From the NCBI RefSeq assembly GCF_006345805.1, contig NW_021835881.1, positions 1 to 41,790 on the forward strand: a DNA stretch of 41,790 nucleotides, in the 5' to 3' direction. Source of the DNA: Octopus sinensis. Lineage: Eukaryota. Of this stretch, positions 1 to 34,500 are shown in pieces. The position numbers and the translations under genes are program-made. How positions within the stretch are numbered: the first letter of the stretch is position 1; each line of letters opens with the position of its first letter. The notes under the pieces were generated by a model that was not told the DNA's origin, made no database searches, and saw only the letters and a program-made list of their open reading frames with translations.

Positions 1-2131
1 GTCCCCCCTCTTTTTCTTGGTACATATAGTTTGTCTGTGTCACTTATTGGGTGGAGTGTCCCACATCTAGTTAGTAAGTTCCTTGTCTTTCTGTCTAAGC
101 TGTTTAATTCGTCTACTGTCCATGCGATTACCCCTGCTCCATATCTAAGGAGTTAAACCGCCCAGATGTTGATAGCTTCGATCTTATTCCGTCCATTTAA
201 TTTCGACTTAACGATCAGTCTTAGTCTGAGCAAGCACTCCACCTTAAATTTTTCTGTCATTTCTTTCTCCATTAATTTATCCATTTCCAAAATCCCTAAG
301 CACTTATAGCCCGTCTCTTCTATCTGCTTCATAACCTTCCCCGACGGTATCGATACCCCGTCCATACATTTGATTTTTGCCTCTCTTCAAAACTAACACA
401 CCACACTGTCTCAGTCCGAACTCCATTCTGATATCAGCACTGAACGTATACACCGTATCAACGAGGAAACTGACATGGGCTTCATCCGTACCATAAAGTT
501 TGAGGTCATCCATGAATAACACTTTTTTCTGTTGGCTTTTGAATACATAACCAGCTTTTGCTTTCCTCAGAATCAGTGTTAGTGGTATCAAGCACAGTAC
601 AAAGATCAGTGGGGACAGGCAGTCCCCTTGGAAGATGTTCCTCCTAATTTCTACTGTCCCTAAGTTACTTCCAAGCAATCGCTCAACAATCGATGCAATA
701 CCAAATAGGTTCATACATACCTTTATCCAAGCGTGTGGGGTCATATCATACTCCTTATGATAGTCGATCCATGCCATGGCTAAGTTACTTTTCCTCTTCT
801 TGCAGTCTCTAAGTATAGTTTTGTCTATCAGGAGTTGATACTTGGTACCTCTGCACTTACGCTTGCAACCCTTCTGCTCTTGTGGCAGTACTCCATTTTT
901 TCCGATGTTCGTACATTGATTCTGCGAGTATTCCAGTCAATAATTTCTACATAAGTTGCAAACAGGATATCGGCCTGTATTTGTCTACCGTATTGCCTTT
1001 TTCGATATTTTTCAAGCACCGCACTGTCCTATCCAATGTCAAAACCACTCTGGTGTTACTTGGTCGGTATTTAACAAGCTGTTGAGTTGCGCAGCTATTC
1101 CTGCATGACATTCCCAAATCTTTTGATCCAGTAGCCCGGTCCCGGGGACTTCCAGTTGCTCATCTTTTTGCTGATTTCCTTCACTTCCCTAACTGAAATG
1201 ACTAGTTCTGCCTGTTTTGGACAGACTACTGTTTGTTTCAGTTCTTGCAACCATTCAGCATCCTTCTTGTGCTCTTTGTTTTTGCTCCAGATGTCACTCC
1301 AAAACCTTTGACTTTCATTGTTATCTGGTATCAACTTTTCATCTGTACACTCTCCATTTATTTCTTTATAGAATCTCTTCTGATCTAATCTGAATAACCT
1401 ATTCTGGTGATAACCCTTCATTCTTTGGTCGTATCTTATCATCTTTGCTTTCTTCGCAACGAGGCGCTGTTTCAGTTCCTCCACTACTACTTTCAGGCCC
1501 TTTCTTTCAATGTTATACTTCCTTTTCAGCGCCCTGTATTTTTGTTCGCTTTTAAGCTCCCCTTTCTCTTTTCGGTCTAACAGAAATTTCCTTCGAGAGA
1601 ATATCTAACCCTGTCTGTATTCTTCGTTTCCCCCATGGATCTTTTCTTTTGTCAATCCCATTATATTTCTTTTTCTTGACATCAACCCCCATGTTTTCTG
1701 CTATAACAATACTTGCTGCCTTGAACAAATTATTTGTTTCTCTGATGTTGTTTGTTCCGATGTATTTCAGAATATCATTGACAGTTTTGGTTTCTTGGTT
1801 CAATTTCCATCGATCAACATTTTTAAGGTTGCAAATAATGTCGCTATCGTTCTCTTGTAGTCTTACCTTTATTCTGTCGTAGATTGCCTTTTGTTCATCT
1901 GTCATGTCACCATTAGTTTTATTGTCTTCTTGTAGATCATCTATATGTCTCTCATCAAGTAAACTACCACTGCTCCTTTCCTGTGCTATGAAATTACTTT
2001 TATTAGTAAGAACTGTATTTTCATCGTTATCTCTGCTGCTATTTTCCAAGACCCATCTTTTGATAGCTTTGAGCTCTACTTCTGTGAACCAACGATTTTT
2101 TCTTATTGCTCTAACTTGATCACATAGTCTC
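1..2131 (-). mobile_element. Decayed R4/Dong-clade non-LTR retrotransposon (RT pseudo-ORF, frameshifted, runs off the window start)
   Basis: Consecutive minus-strand ORFs 1552-2133, 1095-1484, 304-777 and 153-365. RT motifs: [71 protein letters not shown]. These are typical of R4/Dong elements. Confidence 0.88.
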
Positions 2132-2145
2132 AACCACTACGCCAC

Positions 2146-14010: not shown

Positions 14011-14226
14011 AGTTAATCCAAACAAGAAAACACAGAAAAAAAACACAGCAACGCGAGGACGTGGAACAATTAAAGTATTATTTGACGCTCAGGAAAGAAG
14101 GGAAGGAGGGTTTAACGTTTCGAGCGTAGCTCTTCGTCGGAAACAAAGGAGAAGGAAAGATCCCGAGAAGGGAAGACAGAGGAAAAAAATTTTTTTGATG
14201 GTGGTGCTCAAGAGATCACATGTTGA
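14011..14226 (-). mobile_element. PLE-type terminal fragment inserted in (TA)n
   Basis: (TA)n on both sides; carries a minimal HHR; organisation similar to 29292-29490. Confidence 0.6.
14110..14144 (-). ncRNA. Minimal type I hammerhead ribozyme (U4C variant)
   Basis: GUUU-CCGACGA-A-GAGC(uac)GCUC-GAA-ACGU-U-AAAC: stems I and II paired, palindromic ACGU stem III. Confidence 0.7.
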
Positions 14227-14505
14227 ATATATATATATATATATATAAGTTTAACAATTAAGGATAATCTCTTAATAAGGGATTTTAACAAGAAATTATC
14301 GGGTAGCTAGCGTGAAAACCTCATAAAAGAAAAGAATTCGAAAATAATTTTTTTCTTTTGAACAAATTAATTATATCTATATTGTATAGAGGGCATTATT
14401 ACACATAAATGCCTCACACTAGGAGGGACAAAGTCATTACTACCAAAATTATACTAATCATACCCAAATGCAGTTTTTCAAAGCAAGACATTTAAAAATG
14501 AATTT

Positions 14506-14563
14506 AGTTCTGTATCACCGTGATTTCACATTCAACTTACGTCTAATTATCATCAGCAGAACT
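14506..14563 (-). ncRNA. Type I hammerhead ribozyme, array A copy 1
   Basis: AGUUCUG-CUGAUGA-stem II (one extra mismatch versus copies 2 and 3)-GAA-AUCAC(G)GUGAU-A-CAGAACU. Confidence 0.75.
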
Positions 14564-14983
14564 GATTCTGAACACATCATAAATAAACTACCAACCTTAC
14601 GTAGCGAAGACGAACAGACACTGCTCACTCCGGCCAAGCACATGGAACGTTTATAAATCATATATCCGGTAAATGGCGGGCTTTTTACGAACTGCATGTC
14701 GGTAATGAAAAGTATTTCGGAATAAGTTTAACAATTAAGGATAATCTCTTAATAAGGGATTTTAACAAGAAATTATCGGGTAGCTAGCGTGAAAACCTCA
14801 TAAAAGAAAAGAATTCGAAAATAATTTTTTTCTTTTGAACAATTAATTATATCTATATTGTATAGAGGGCATTATTACACATAAATGCCTCACACTAGGA
14901 GGAGGGACAAAGTCATTACTACCAAAATTATACTAATCATACCCAAATGCAGTTTTTCAAAGCAAGACATTTAAAATGAATTT

Positions 14984-15041
14984 AGTTCTGTATCACCGTG
15001 ATTTCACATTCAACTTACGTCTAATGATCATCAGCAGAACT
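14984..15041 (-). ncRNA. Type I hammerhead ribozyme, array A copy 2
   Basis: AGUUCUG-CUGAUGA-U-CAUU-A-GAC(GUAA)GUU-G-AAUG-U-GAA-AUCAC(G)GUGAU-A-CAGAACU. 7-bp stem I, AUA cleavage triplet. Confidence 0.85.
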
Positions 15042-15453
15042 GATTCTGAACACATCATAATAAACTACCAACCTTACGTAGCGAAGACGAACAGACAACT
15101 GCTCACTCCGGCCAAGCACATGGAACGTTTATAAATCATATATCCGGTAAATGGCGGGCTTTTTACGAACTGCATGTCGGTAATGAAAAGTATTTCGGAA
15201 TAAGTTTAACAATTAAGGATAATCTCTTAATAAGGGATTTTAACAAGAATTATCGCTAGCGTGAAAACCTCATAAAAGAAAAGAATTCGAAAATAATTTT
15301 TTTCTTTTGAACAATTAATTATATCTATATTGTATAGAGGGCATTATTACACATAAATGCCTCACACTAGGAGGGACAAAGTCATTACTACCAAAATTAT
15401 ACTAATCATACCCAAATGCAGTTTTTCAAAGCAAGACATTTAAAAATGAATTT

Positions 15454-15511
15454 AGTTCTGTATCACCGTGATTTCACATTCAACTTACGTCTAATGATCA
15501 TCAGCAGAACT
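15454..15511 (-). ncRNA. Type I hammerhead ribozyme, array A copy 3
   Basis: Same sequence as copy 2. Confidence 0.85.
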
Positions 15512-15589
15512 GATTCTGAACACATCATAAATAAACTACCAACCTTACGTAGCGAAGACGAACAGACAACTGCTCACTCCGGCCGTGTG

Positions 15590-17027: not shown

Positions 17028-17181
17028 ATGCCGGAGTTAGCACATAAATGTGGAACAAGGTGGGGAAAAAAAGAATACTCAAATACAAGAGGTAGAGTAA
17101 TATGCTTTATTATCAGAAATATCACAAAAAGTGTCACTCTGAGTAACAGTTTTTGTGATAATTCTGTTGCTTTTAATAAAG

Positions 17182-17220: not shown

Positions 17221-17274
17221 GTATGTATGTATATATGCTTGTATGTATGAATGTATGAATGTATATATATATAT

Positions 17275-18230
17275 GGAAAAATAAGTCAAGATAGAAAATG
17301 CTAAAGTTATTTTATAAAAAACATTTCAGTACCGGTTTCAGTAATTGAGACTTTTTCAATTGTAAGTATGGAAAATAATTAGAATTGGAAAAATTTAAAG
17401 AAAAGTTTTTTAAAAAAATATATGCTTAGTGTTCAAATACAAGTGGCATTTTCCTTGTTTCTGCCTATCTCTGTCTCTCTTGTTTATTCATGTGGATTCG
17501 AGGTCGTTGTGATTTATTGGTAGGGAAGAAGAAGAAGAAGAAGAAGAAGAAGAAGAAGAAGAAGAAGAAGAAGGAATGTAGGTAGTGTGAAAGTAGTAAG
17601 GTGTTAAATGTTCAAAATGACTTAAAATTGGCACGTTATGGATTATAGCAGTGATTGGAACTGTTTTTTCATGAATTCTTGGGAATCTCTTGAGCGTATC
17701 ATTATTAATATTTGCGTGTGTATTTGTGTTATTCTAAGGCCGTGGTGGATATGTCGTTTGTCGTAGACGCGTTCAAAAGGGGTCTGTATTTTGTAATAAA
17801 GAGAGTCTCTTTAATAATTCGTTGACTCCAGGTTGTATCGTTCCTGAATTGGTAGAGGGGAAAACTTCTAAAGCTTGGATTTTTGTTATTGGTGCAAATG
17901 TCTATGCTTGATTAGTTTTGATCCGAGTTCAAGGAGTCTTCGTTCACAAGTATAGGTGTCCGAAACTATGGAACAGATTCTTTTCGCTAGCTTACCAGGT
18001 ATATTAACGGTGTGGCATAAATTGAATAATAGGTATTGTTTTGAATCTGTGGGTTTATAGAAGACGTCTGTTTCGATGTGGTTATTGGCTATTTTAATTA
18101 GGATGTCAAGAAAAGGGAGTTGTTTATTGCTGTGCTCCATGGTGAATTGTATGTTGCTATTGATATTGTTGAGCATTATTTTGAAATCAAGTAGTTTGTC
18201 CATGCTATCTTTCTAAAGTATAAAGCAATA
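17275..18230 (-). mobile_element. Penelope-like retroelement fragment (RT C-terminus fused by deletion to the end of GIY-YIG, plus 3'UTR)
   Basis: ORF 17886-18203 NSNIQFTMEHSNKQLPFLDILI...TDVFYKPTDSKQYL.F..CH (PLE RT/thumb), then FPLYQF...QRIIKERLFITKYRPLLN. 3'UTR has (GAA)n and an HHR-like motif and ends in (TA)n. Confidence 0.88.
17327..17362 (-). ncRNA. Atypical hammerhead-like motif (UUGAAAA core) in PLE 3' end
   Basis: CAA-UUGAAAA-AGU(cucaauu)ACU-GAA-ACCGGU-A-CUG. Confidence 0.4.
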
Positions 18231-19293: not shown

Positions 19294-19531
19294 GTATACT
19301 TCATTATTAAAGCTGGAAAATACATCACAAAAGTATCACAAAAAACTGCTACTCAGAGTTTCACGTTCCCGTTGGTCGGGCAGATCGTAACTGCCCGACG
19401 AACAGAAACGTGAAACTCTGAGTAGCAGTTTTTGTGATATCTTTGTGATGTTTTGCAACTTAATAATAAAGCATATTACTCTGAGTGCTATTCTTTGCCG
19501 TACCTTGTTTCACTTTTATGTGCTTACTCTG

Positions 19532-19535: not shown

Positions 19536-19593
<58 letters not shown>

Positions 19594-19602
19594 GTACATG
19601 TT

Positions 19603-19657
<55 letters not shown>

Positions 19658-19820
19658 AAGTCAAATTGCGATAAAATAAAAATAATTATTATCGCTGGTA
19701 TTTCTAGCACAAGCCATATATTTTTCATATATCAGTACATTAAGGCGAAATATGTGCTAGGAACACAGAAGCTAGATAAATTTAGTGAAATGAAGATAAA
19801 AACATTTACTAACTCGGTTC

Positions 19821-19894
19821 CTCTTAGACTGCAGTTTCGTTCTTTTCATCAATAAAGATAAATTATTTGCTCAGGGAGAATTCATCGGTAAGAG
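19821..19894 (-). ncRNA. Type I hammerhead ribozyme, array B copy 1
   Basis: CUCUUA-CCGAUGA-long stem II (UUCU/AGAA...)-GAA-ACUGCAGU-C-UAAGAG; GUC triplet. Confidence 0.8.
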
Positions 19895-20217
19895 CCCTGT
19901 TGTTCTGAGATCCTAACTCACTAGAAGCATGTGCTTCTAATGATTTACTCTCTCTAACTAATCAGATCACTGCGCAGACTCCGAACGTCCCGACAAAACT
20001 AGGGATTTCTGGTATATCGTCTAGCGCTCAAAATTTATCGAGAAATATGTAAACAAGTCAAATTGCGATAAAATAAAAATAATTATTATCGCTGGTATTT
20101 CTAGCACAAGCCATATATTTTTCATATATCAGTACATTAAGGCGAAATATGTGCTAGGAACACAGAAGCTAGATAAATTTAGTGAAATGAAGATAAAAAC
20201 ATTTACTAACTCGGTTC

Positions 20218-20291
20218 CTCTTAGACTGCAGTTTCGTTCTTTTCAGCAATAAAGATAAATTATTTGCTCGGGGAGAATTCATCGGTAAGAG
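20218..20291 (-). ncRNA. Type I hammerhead ribozyme, array B copy 2
   Basis: As copy 1, with better distal stem II pairing (AGCA/UGCU, AUAA/UUAU). Confidence 0.82.
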
Positions 20292-20407
20292 CCCTGTTGT
20301 TCTGAGATCCTAACTCACTAGAAGCATGTGCTTCTAATGATTTACTCTCTCTAACTAATCAGATCACTGCGCAGACTCCGAACGTCCCGACAAAACTAGG
20401 GATTTCT

Positions 20408-21155
20408 ATTCTATAATTATGAACATAATTATAATCAGGAGTCAGCTAATTGCTTCACCAGGCACCGAATTTAGAAATGGTAGTTAAAATGACTTTTCTG
20501 CTACTATAAAGATCTCCCAGACAATAACAAACTTATTTACGTACAAAAAGAAAAAAAATTACGAATCCACACGACTTAGATTAGCTACATACGCGTTTCG
20601 AATTTGAAGTAAGGTAATATTTACTTACTTATTTCACCTCTTCAGTGCAGTATTTCAAGATATAAAGTTGTGAGTGTTAGAATTAAATATGTACGTGATC
20701 AAGCGTCATCGCATAACTGACATCCAACCAACACTTTCAAAAATATACAGCCGAACGTGAACACGTTTTCATCCTTAATACCCACGTGTGTGTTACGAGT
20801 AATCCTGCAGAAACTGCGATTTCTGATCAAGGAGTAAAATATATTTCAATAATAATAAAAGGCTTAATTAATAATTAATAATTTTACCGAGTAGTTCGGT
20901 ACCTTTTTTAGGTAAAATTATATTTTATAAATATAATTATAACCAGGGGTTAGCTAATTGCTTCACCGTGCACCGAATATAGAAATAGGAGTTAAAATGC
21001 CTTTTCTGCTACTGTAAAGATCTCCCAGACAATAACACTTATTTACGTAGGCAAAAAAAAAAAGCGAATCCACACGACTCAGATTAGCTACATACACGTT
21101 TCGAATTTGAAGTAAAGTAATATTTACAAACATATTTCACCCCTTCAGTGAAGCA
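20408..21155 (-). repeat. Retrozyme-like tandem array C: ~505-bp unit x ~1.5 (copies visibly diverged)
   Basis: ATAATTATAA.CAGG.GT.AGCTAATTGCTTCACC at 20425 and 20933; HHR motif repeated 503 bp apart. Confidence 0.85.
20585..20650 (-). ncRNA. Type I hammerhead ribozyme, array C copy 1 (decayed copy at 21088-21153)
   Basis: CUGCA-CUGAAGA-GG..UGAA.UAAG...CUUA.UUCA..UC-GAA-ACGCGU-A-UGUAG; GUA triplet. Copy 2 has CUGAAGG and ACGUGU. Confidence 0.8.
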
Positions 21156-29641: not shown

Positions 29642-29860
29642 TCAATATAGGGTAGCAAAAATTCAGCAGAAATTATTTTGCTACCAGCGGTCTAGTGAGA
29701 AAAAGGAAATAGTCAGAGACTATTTATAAATTCAACAGCAAATTAAGGAACGGCCATAATAGGCCGTTCAACCCACTAGAAATAACAGCCAAGGCTTCAA
29801 CCGCAAAATAGTAGTAATTCCGTAAATCAGGAGAAAATTAAAAAACCCTTACCCTGTATC

Positions 29861-29958
29861 ACTTATACAATGCATTGTTTCATCGTTTTTTTATGGTAAA
29901 TCACCTGGTTAAATTAAATCAGCTAATCTTCCATAGGCCAACAGATTCATCAGTAAGT
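29861..29958 (-). ncRNA. Type I hammerhead ribozyme, array D copy 1
   Basis: ACUUA-CUGAUGA-AUC.GUU...UAUGG...CCAUA...AAC.GAU-GAA-ACAAUGCAUUGU-A-UAAGU; GUA triplet. Confidence 0.85.
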
Positions 29959-30671
29959 AAGCCAGGAGGGAGAGATATTACACGAGGCAGCACCACTACC
30001 GCTTCGGCAATATCTAACCTAAAATTTTCAAAATCATCGTACTCTCGCGCGCCAATTTATCGGCAGCAAATATAAGCTGCCGATTCCATTTCGGAATTAA
30101 CAGAAAATTCATAATTAATCAATATAGGGTAGCAAAAATTTAGCAGAAATTATTTTGCTACCAGCGGTCTAGTGAGAAAAAGGAAATAGTCAGAAAAACT
30201 ATTTATAATTCAACAGCAAATTAAGGAACGGCCATAATAGGCCGTTCAACCCACTAGAAATAACAGCCAAGGCTTCAACCGCAAAATAGTAGTAATTCCG
30301 TAAATCAGGAGAAATAAAAAAAAACATTTACCCTGTATCACTTTATACAATGCATTGTTTTTAATTTCTAGTGGGTTGAACGGCCTATTATGGCCGTTCC
30401 TTAATTTGCTGTTGAATTTATAAATAGTCTCTGACTATTTCCTTTTTCTCACTAGACCGCTGGTAGCAAAATAATTTCTGCTGAATTTTTTGCTACCCTA
30501 TATTGATTAATTATGAATTTTCTGTTTAATTCCGAAATGGAATCGGCAGCTTATATTTGCTGCCGATAAATTGGCGCGAGTACGATGATTTTGAAAATTT
30601 TAGGTTAGATATTGCCGAAGCGGTAGTGGTTTGTCTCGTGTCTCTCGTAATATATCTCTCCCTCCTGGCTT

Positions 30672-30770
30672 ACTTTACTGATGAATCTGTTGGCCTATGG
30701 AAGATACCTGATTTAATTTAACCCGGCTGATTTACCATTAAAAACGATGAAACAATGCATTGTATAAAGT
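30672..30770 (+). ncRNA. Type I hammerhead ribozyme, array D inverted copy
   Basis: ACTTTA CTGATGA ATC...GAT GAA ACAATGCATTGT A TAAAGT can be read directly on the plus strand. Confidence 0.85.
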
Positions 30771-30899
30771 GATACAGGGTAAATGTTTTTTTAATTTTCT
30801 CCTGATTTACGGAATTACTACTATTTTGCGGTTGAAGAGCCTTGGCTGTTATTTCCGTGGGTTGAACGGCCTATTATGGCCGTTCCTTATTTGCTGTTG

Positions 30900-33611: not shown

Positions 33612-34500
33612 ACAAAGAAGCCTTCACCATCATCACCCAGAATTTACCAATACTTCATAAGGGCCCCAAATTAAAGGAAATTCTAAAAAATACACCAAAT
33701 CATTAAAAGCTACAAACAACCTAAATCACTTAAAAAGATTCTCACAAAGGCAAAATTGTTTTCTGAAATTACGGATGCAAAAGTAAAAAAATGTGGTAGA
33801 TCGAACTGTGCAACATGTCCAAACCTGCTAGAAGGATCAGAATTCCTCTTTAAAGAGGGACAGAAATTCAAGATCAAATCTAACTTTACTTATGCCTCTG
33901 AAAACATAATTTATGTCATAAAATGCTCGGGCTACCACCAAGACTACGTGGGATCCACGGGACTATCACTCAGACGTAGATGCACACTGCATCGACAATA
34001 GATTGCATTCCCAGAATACAGAATGATACCTTTTAGTGAGCACATTGAGAAATGCGCAAAGCAACTACTACCACAATTTTTAATCTTTCCATTTTACCAA
34101 TGTGCTATCTGATCATCAACACAAATCAGACTAAACAAGGAAACATTCTTCATTGAAAAGTACAAGCCCAGACTTAACCATTCCAACATACTGATACAGA
34201 GAAATTCACACCAAGGGAAAGGCAAAAAATTTTAAGCGATTATCTCCCTTATACCGGAAGAAATCACTCATTACCTCCCCTTATTTAGAACTCTTTTAAA
34301 CATAAACATAACGATAACTCTGTTCAACATAAACTTAACGTCGTAAGAAATTTGAAAAGCTAAACGCGAAACCGGTCTTTCTTCTAAATTATGTCATTGT
34401 AAGAGAAAAGATTTTTTAATATTCTTCAGATATTGACTCAAATATATATATTTTTAACCTTTAAGCCTTCTGTAGTTTTTTCACTTTTTACTATTTTCTG
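33612..34500 (+). mobile_element. Penelope-like element 3' part (Neptune-like Cys linker plus GIY-YIG endonuclease, disabled)
   Basis: IIKSYKQPKSLKKILTKAK...CGRSNCATC...SENIIYVIKCSGYHQDYVGSTGLSLRRRCTLHRQ*...FSEHIEKC...FPFYQ...KETFFIEKYKPRLN; (TA)n on both sides. Confidence 0.9.
34345..34383 (+). ncRNA. Atypical hammerhead-like motif (UUGAAAA core) in PLE 3' end
   Basis: AAGAAA-U-UUGAAAA-GC(uaaac)GC-GAA-ACCGGU-C-UUUCUU; 6-bp stem I, GUC triplet. Confidence 0.5.

Follow-up and report, generated by a model that had tools for sequence, protein, structure and literature searches.

A dispersed 397-bp hammerhead repeat family of Octopus sinensis, probably a non-autonomous retrozyme reverse-transcribed by a Penelope-like element

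Mobilisation of animal retrozymes by Penelope-like elements (PLEs) has so far been proposed mostly from co-occurrence and from likeness of the pLTRs. PLE insertions form partial tandems, can include inverted 5' copies and tails, and show a bias towards (TA)n, as set out in parts of PMC8557442. In an Anolis PLE, reverse transcription starts internally, downstream of the hammerhead, and hammerhead cleavage was found to be dispensable for PLE insertion in vitro (PMC11167929). A short palindromic stem III and cleavage as a dimer are described in portions of PMC4209133 and PMC6765202, and 8 of 9 predicted Xenopus retrozyme dimers failed to cleave according to a section of a preprint (Li, Clavereau & Pollet 2026, bioRxiv 10.64898/2026.07.22.740005). 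The U4C change of the hammerhead core occurs naturally in a viroid, where activity in vitro is reduced and infectivity is kept (Perreault et al. 2011, part of PMC3088659).

The window analysed here is the whole of a 41,790-nt stretch of O. sinensis DNA (contig NW_021835881.1). It contains a tandem repeat at 19648-20407 with a period of 397 bp, 1.9 copies and 99 % matches, which agrees with the 397-bp repeat array reported in a preliminary description of this DNA. The insertion, called array B, lies on the minus strand, with its fixed 3' end at 19653 and its truncated 5' end at 20407 (Table 1). Over the 355 positions at which the copies overlap there are two differences, at 19849 and 19873. The unit has a GC content of 35 %, no tRNA was found in it, and the only reading frames inside it are of 34-37 aa; the rest extend into the (TA)n and no ORF is conserved. 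Both pairs of extra hairpin arms listed earlier were found in each copy. The hairpin close to the fixed 3' end has both arms changed in the sister family. Array B is a single 755-bp insertion of a non-coding 397-bp hammerhead family, and we consider it likely that this family is a non-autonomous retrozyme copied from RNA by a PLE.

Table 1. Features of array B and its flank; positions are those of the window
Feature	Position (copy 1)	Position (copy 2)	Strand	Remarks
Whole insertion (putative retrozyme)	19653..20407		-	755 bp, 1.9 units
Full unit nearest the 3' end	19653..20049		-	397 bp
Second unit, 5'-truncated		20050..20407	-	
(TA)n microsatellite next to the fixed 3' end (insertion target)	19541..19652		.	
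Hairpin 15 nt upstream of the fixed 3' end	19668..19695	20065-20092	-	Candidate reverse-transcriptase start signal (putative function)
Extra 8-bp helix of the preliminary description	19704..19760	20101-20157	-	
Type I hammerhead	19821..19894	20218..20291	-	Core CCGAUGA at 19888-19882 (copy 1) and 20285-20279 (copy 2); predicted cuts after 19827 and 20224
Loop-II strand (CCCUG) of covarying pairing	19872..19876	20269-20273	-	
5' strand (CAGGG) of covarying loop-II pairing	19895..19899	20292-20296	-	
Extra hairpin of the preliminary description	19922..19939	20319-20336	-	
Predicted cut-to-cut monomer	19827..20223		-	397 nt; candidate circular RNA

A motif scan found in both copies a minus-strand hammerhead with a 6-bp stem I (CUCUUA/UAAGAG), the core CCGAUGA, GAAA, CUGCAG and UC, and C17 of the GUC falls at 19827 and 20224. 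The motif itself and the two predicted cuts, which would give a 397-nt monomer, are as first described. Both copies score 29.3 bits (E 0.0025) against the Rfam model Hammerhead_1, for which the gathering score is 34. The helices fared less uniformly. Stem III is present, but consists of only 2 bp (A-U and C-G) enclosing a palindromic UGCA loop. Stem II, described as long and AU-rich, is not one helix but several parts, as an A10.1.C11.1 mismatch is followed by 4 bp, an internal loop and then a distal AU-rich helix. Both copies thus depart from the canonical consensus (CUGANGA core and G10.1-C11.1 pair) in having CCGAUGA and A10.1.C11.1. In copy 1, a further change at 19849 weakens the distal helix of stem II, and in copy 2 a further weakening change, U>C at 20270, is found in the loop-II pairing strand. 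The preliminary description had overlooked that G10.1-C11.1 is lost, that loop II takes part in a covarying pairing and that the insertion has a PLE-type anatomy.

The five bases that precede stem I form base pairs with the beginning of loop II, as CAGGG/CCCUG in the array B family and as AAGGC/GCCUU in the sister family. A pseudoknot between stems I and II occurs in about 40 % of hammerheads (part of PMC3088659) and, because the position matches, the loop-II pairing is likely to be such a pseudoknot. Alternatively, it could be a nested off-state, and as a nested helix it has a probability of about 0.26 in the predicted circle. Stem I variants seen across relatives are CUUA/UAAG, CUUG/CAAG, CCUG/CAGG and CUCA/UGAG. 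In 44 aligned hammerheads, pairing was present in 85.1 % of cells, compared to 34-48 % in slid controls, and both-sided changes were found in 7 of 17 pairs; kinship among rows inflates the cell counts, and 6 rows that the MAFFT alignment misregistered at the pseudoknot and 5 in stem II were kept in. C3, G5, A6, G8, A9, GAAA and CUGCAGU are invariant in 44/44 rows and position 7 is variable, though core invariance is partly built in as the rows were chosen via a core pattern. A pattern for canonical relatives (sister families) had 53 matches in the genome and 0 in the control; U4 (CUGANGA) is found in 52 of the 53 listed and G10.1 and C11.1 in all, the latter by design of the pattern. Taken at the level of RNA, these changes argue that the array B hammerhead is under structural selection.

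Energies that exclude pseudoknots and dimers place the hammerhead at -5.1 kcal/mol and the minimum-energy local fold at -12.0 kcal/mol, and stems I-III have a probability near 0 in the predicted circle (z -1.6). The canonical relatives behave likewise, with the hammerhead 4.8-8.5 kcal/mol above the minimum-energy fold. Both U4C and the loss of G10.1-C11.1 should reduce activity. As this pair is lost and the hammerhead is not the predicted fold of lowest energy, cleavage may be slow.

On the sequence evidence, array B is one insertion of a dispersed family. A search of the 2.72-Gb genome with the unit returned 839 candidates, of which 40 were scored. At 39/39 fetched loci, as in array B, the 3' end lies within a few bases of ...TTGTTTA and is followed by TA-rich DNA, and the 5' ends differ. 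The search was repeated with a permuted (cut-to-cut) query to rule out query bias on the fixed end, and 38 of 40 3' pieces again stopped together, at query positions 177-180, with one at 163 and one at 192. This end is 174 nt beyond the predicted cut. Three family patterns had 220, 265 and 286 matches in the genome and 0 in each reversed control, the 286 being exact 3' junctions to (TA)n, and chance is thereby excluded. The dispersed copies for which the preliminary description had looked to a BLAST search are thus present.

From the first 100 listed of the 286 junctions, 99 were used and gave 97 distinct junctions, a few of them in local duplications. The 97 insertions selected in this way have a median length of 186 bp, with 4 cut off by the edge of the locus, and 35 are longer than one unit. 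Of the 97, 51 extend beyond the first cut site (174 nt in from the 3' end), 22 beyond the second and 14 beyond the third. The 5' flank is TA-rich in 70 of 93 insertions and an inverted 5' copy is present in 2 of 97. Across the family, lengths range from about 30 bp to about 37 units. At the long end are two arrays of about 37.5 and 28.3 units in a sister subfamily 90 % identical to the array B family, which share the same 3' end and have a mid-unit 5' start; their ends were fetched and their interior is known from the spacing of pattern matches. In the sister family with a unit of about 433 bp, the 3' end is fixed at either of two sites, one about 105 nt and one about 200 nt beyond the cut, and the RNA is TA-like at each of them; PLE tails similarly have two start sites. 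The divergence among units of one locus is no lower than that from the nearest other locus (0.0081 vs 0.0075; lower in 10 of 29 loci), which lends no support to a single circular template. None of the 97 junction-selected insertions ends at 167-182 bp. A linear cut-to-cut monomer cannot be the template as a rule, because reverse transcription on it would end after 174 nt; a circle could serve, and so could an uncleaved multimer.

Within the family, C4 is found in 54 of 220 exact motifs genome-wide, representing about 44 loci, and the canonical U4 in 166 of 220. Among the closest copies of array B, which are a biased sample, 38 of 54 have C4. A tree of the family hammerheads, with the sister family as root, leads from the canonical state to A10.1, then through a single gain of C4 (100/99) to several nested C4 source lineages and finally back to U4. 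Array B falls near the top of the nested C4 lineages, and position 7 changes freely up to the youngest long arrays. A single clade of C4 rows was rejected (AU p 5e-78, for a group named after the tree was seen), and C4 rows together with the later U4 rows form one clade. As C4 creates a CpG, the reversal may be partly mutational.

U4C had also been reported at 14.1 and 19.4 kb and regarded as a tolerated variant. CCGAYGA cores in a hammerhead context are indeed found at 14140 (minus strand) and 19395 (plus strand), but the families are unrelated. The first is a minimal hammerhead at 14112-14140 (minus strand) of a very high-copy family with 7111 exact-pattern matches. The second belongs to an inverted pair of minimal hammerheads with a CCGACGA core at 19346-19430, intact on the plus strand and damaged on the minus strand, which forms a PLE-type inverted end; a related fragment is at 17127-17167. 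Tolerance holds to the extent that C4 sources kept transposing through nested lineages and that C4 is found in 65 of the first 100 listed of the 7111 matches to the unrelated family. It is tempered by the return of U4 in the youngest lineage, by the 166 canonical motifs and by the fact that U4C was already known as a natural variant of low activity. U4C is therefore tolerated but not new, and was a passing and probably sub-optimal stage in the history of the source lineage. Genome-wide, a loose pattern for U4C, with 60,883 matches vs 51,673 in the control, is a lead only. The study of PLE hammerhead variants by Lunse et al. in 2017 may include U4C already.

These data also bear on an alternative that keeps the same element and PLE mobilisation, but in which this sub-lineage, with its U4C/A10.1 ribozyme, has in effect lost cleavage and uncleaved linear multimers, with no circle, are the templates. 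The two departures from consensus, a predicted fold other than the hammerhead, the passage of reverse transcription through cut sites with no clear stop, the regained U4 in the youngest lineage with the longest arrays and the finding that a PLE can dispense with cleavage in vitro (PMC11167929) are all in its favour. We nevertheless regard it as unlikely. Both strands of stem I went on changing while U4C prevailed and afterwards, via U.G intermediates, the remaining core letters stayed fixed in source lineages, and the activity of U4C is sufficient for viroid infectivity (part of PMC3088659). Additionally, 6 of 55 longer insertions start within -5 to +10 nt of a cut (nominal p 0.023), a count that is not significant given the length skew and for which about 10 of the 55 walks stopped early.

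The window also includes PLE sequences. A 5'-truncated Neptune/Nematis-type PLE at 33620-34500 (plus strand) consists of the GIY-YIG end and a 3' UTR, and ends at (TA)n; copies elsewhere have open frames of 800-850 aa. The GIY-YIG fragment at 33687-34001 is 96-100 % identical in 150/150 scored matches, with frames of up to 850 aa, and the family, judged by these identities, is young. In an 850-aa frame, RVT_1 scored above the cut-off and GIY-YIG under it, and a CxxxxCxxC linker of the type tied to Neptune and Nematis (PMC11167929) was spotted by eye. Elements of the young family stop at a fixed site next to (TA)n, in some cases with a tail of about 40 nt, and the 3' UTR of the copies with long open frames showed no canonical hammerhead. 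Another PLE RT family (9344 candidates, of which 150 were scored) is represented by a broken fragment at 17260-18212 (minus strand), and Pfam recognised neither PLE fragment of the window. Broken RT frames (RVT_1) of a non-LTR retrotransposon are found at 304-2136 (minus strand).

The array B family shares with Neptune/Nematis-type PLEs and their derivatives (parts of PMC8557442, PMC11167929 and PMC4209133) the 5' truncation, partial tandems, inverted 5' copies and (TA)n target, and shares the fixed 3' end with PLE derivatives. It is not an autonomous PLE, which would carry an ORF for RT and GIY-YIG. The repeat showed no significant homology to either of two PLE families, the young one and a second: against 24 loci the best E was 0.61 (own array aside), and against 8 loci the best non-TA match was 31 nt (E 0.029). 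Short U-rich likenesses at the 3' ends of the repeat and the PLEs were noted by eye only and were not counted. Contiguity with a PLE frame was found for 0 of 97 copies. We infer the PLE partner from behaviour, not from sequence.

A non-autonomous DNA element of the rolling-circle (Helitron2/Helentron-like) type, in which the hammerhead is incidental, is very improbable. Tandems of variable length and a fixed end that has a hairpin some 15 nt further in are rolling-circle traits too, but here it is the 3' terminus of the ribozyme strand that is fixed, and it reads TGTTTA, not CTRR. This end joins (TA)n, as that of the resident PLE does, inverted 5' copies are present as in PLEs and the structure covaries at the RNA level, and the Helitron reading was rejected on these grounds. 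Ordinary satellite DNA that recombination has spread, and whose hammerhead is a relic or due to chance, is scarcely credible, as recombination can neither fix one end at 286 sites while leaving the other random nor explain compensatory helix changes, and although long head-to-tail arrays exist and part of their length may be later local expansion, the end anatomy largely refutes it and leaves it only the growth of the longest arrays.

Further hammerhead repeats surround array B. Array A, at 14245-15584 (minus strand), has 2.8 copies of a 478-bp repeat, and type I hammerheads of canonical sequence lie at 14984-15041 and 15454-15511. On the minus strand the 3' end of array A meets (TA)n after a hairpin, and the array is likely to be a second retrozyme family. 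Array C, from 20408 to about 21160 (minus strand), has a period of about 505 bp, copies that are 88-89 % alike and a hammerhead at 20585-20650, and adjoins the 5' end of array B with no TA in between. As contigs show that the array C family normally ends near 20407 before (TA)n, array B was probably inserted at the tail of array C, or the RT switched template. Related canonical type I hammerheads with a long stem II form an inverted pair at 29859-29960 (minus strand) and 30670-30772 (plus strand). Elsewhere in the genome (C1:3710596-3711727 and 3945727-3947724), a tandem family of about 540 bp has hammerhead-like motifs with the CCGAUGA core.

No RNA record was identified among 20 records (9 studies, 5 organism codes) that contain part of the stretch, for which the RNA status was guessed. 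The four of these that were examined gave contigs only, and ends, strand and circles are not readable from contigs. One contig of 427 bases has the length of a closed assembly loop (397+30), but a tandem transcript or DNA gives an equal length, so that the contig does not speak for a circle.

For the preferred reading, a retrozyme copied by a PLE, the following course can be proposed. Tandem copies would be transcribed from the minus strand, and the hammerheads would cut at GUC, probably slowly, as dimers formed via the palindromic stem III loop and assisted by the loop-II pseudoknot. Monomers would then be ligated to circles, or multimers would be left uncleaved. A Neptune/Nematis-type GIY-YIG endonuclease would nick (TA)n and reverse transcription would begin inside the RNA at a fixed point, 174 nt beyond the cut and immediately behind the conserved hairpin, where the RNA reads UA(C/U)AU, like the target. 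The RT would go round the circle or along the multimer and drop off at random, producing partial tandems. A bolder version, which we hold only tentatively, is that the family is a record of Penelope RT rolling round circular retrozyme RNA from a single fixed start within it, with up to about 37 units per event placed into (TA)n, the hairpin as the start signal and a hammerhead sequence walk (G10.1-C11.1 lost, U4C gained and later reversed) buffered by the pseudoknot and dimer cleavage. If this were true, the partnership of PLE and retrozyme would become testable with a defined RNA start and a resident enzyme.

The family adds evidence from insertion ends, namely a fixed internal start, a (TA)n target and copies of more than one unit. 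It also supplies a concrete RNA start site, a candidate 850-aa enzyme and a dated series of natural hammerhead variants with a covarying pseudoknot. What makes it useful is the anatomy of its ends together with the series of variants, rather than U4C as such. Literature searches found no octopus retrozyme and no fixed internal 3' end of a retrozyme, though the supplements of papers may contain cephalopod examples; the words 'ribozyme' and 'retrozyme' are absent from the portion of the main text of an Octopus repeat annotation (PMC13282606) that was available.

Among the known systems, the plant LTR retrozyme has a type III hammerhead in each of two LTRs and a unique central region, and array B differs from it in having type I hammerheads in head-to-tail units. 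The viroid U4C hammerhead (part of PMC3088659) has the same core change. However, the variant in array B is genomic, at about 44 loci, is also found in the majority of listed copies of another family, and can be placed on a tree with one gain and a later reversal. As in PLEs, the putative start of reverse transcription in the array B family is fixed and lies within the RNA, past the hammerhead. Unlike PLEs, the family has no ORF, and its hammerhead has the larger canonical-type fold, whereas the PLE hammerhead, as described in part of that literature, is a minimal form. The start site resembles the TA target over a short stretch, whereas that of the Anolis PLE is not homologous to the cut DNA (PMC11167929).

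The closest match is to the non-LTR retrozymes of animals (Cervera & de la Pena 2020, part of PMC7229834), which are short non-coding tandem repeats of 350-390 bp in mussel, compared to 397 bp here. According to the same source, they have in common with the array B family a type I hammerhead in each unit, a 2-bp stem III with a palindromic loop, GC below 50 %, a range from monomers to tens of units and co-resident PLEs. Array B conforms in being a dispersed tandem of a few hundred bp with at least two consecutive hammerhead units, albeit with a variant core, in a genome with PLEs, and in having no coding capacity, no LTR structure and GC below 50 %, as assessed from GC content, frames and the tRNA scan. 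Homology of the pLTR to an autonomous PLE is reported for 21 of 57 Xenopus families in a section of Li, Clavereau & Pollet 2026 (bioRxiv 10.64898/2026.07.22.740005), whereas none was found for array B against two PLE families. The array B lineage differs from the retrozymes covered in these sources in its U4C core and loss of G10.1-C11.1, and in that its loop contact is a covarying 5-bp pairing in place of the archetypal loop-loop contact. A fixed internal 3' end at (TA)n combined with random 5' ends is likewise undescribed in the portions of that literature considered. With these distinguishing features, the array B family is classed here, by its sequence characters, as an additional family among the non-LTR retrozymes of animals.
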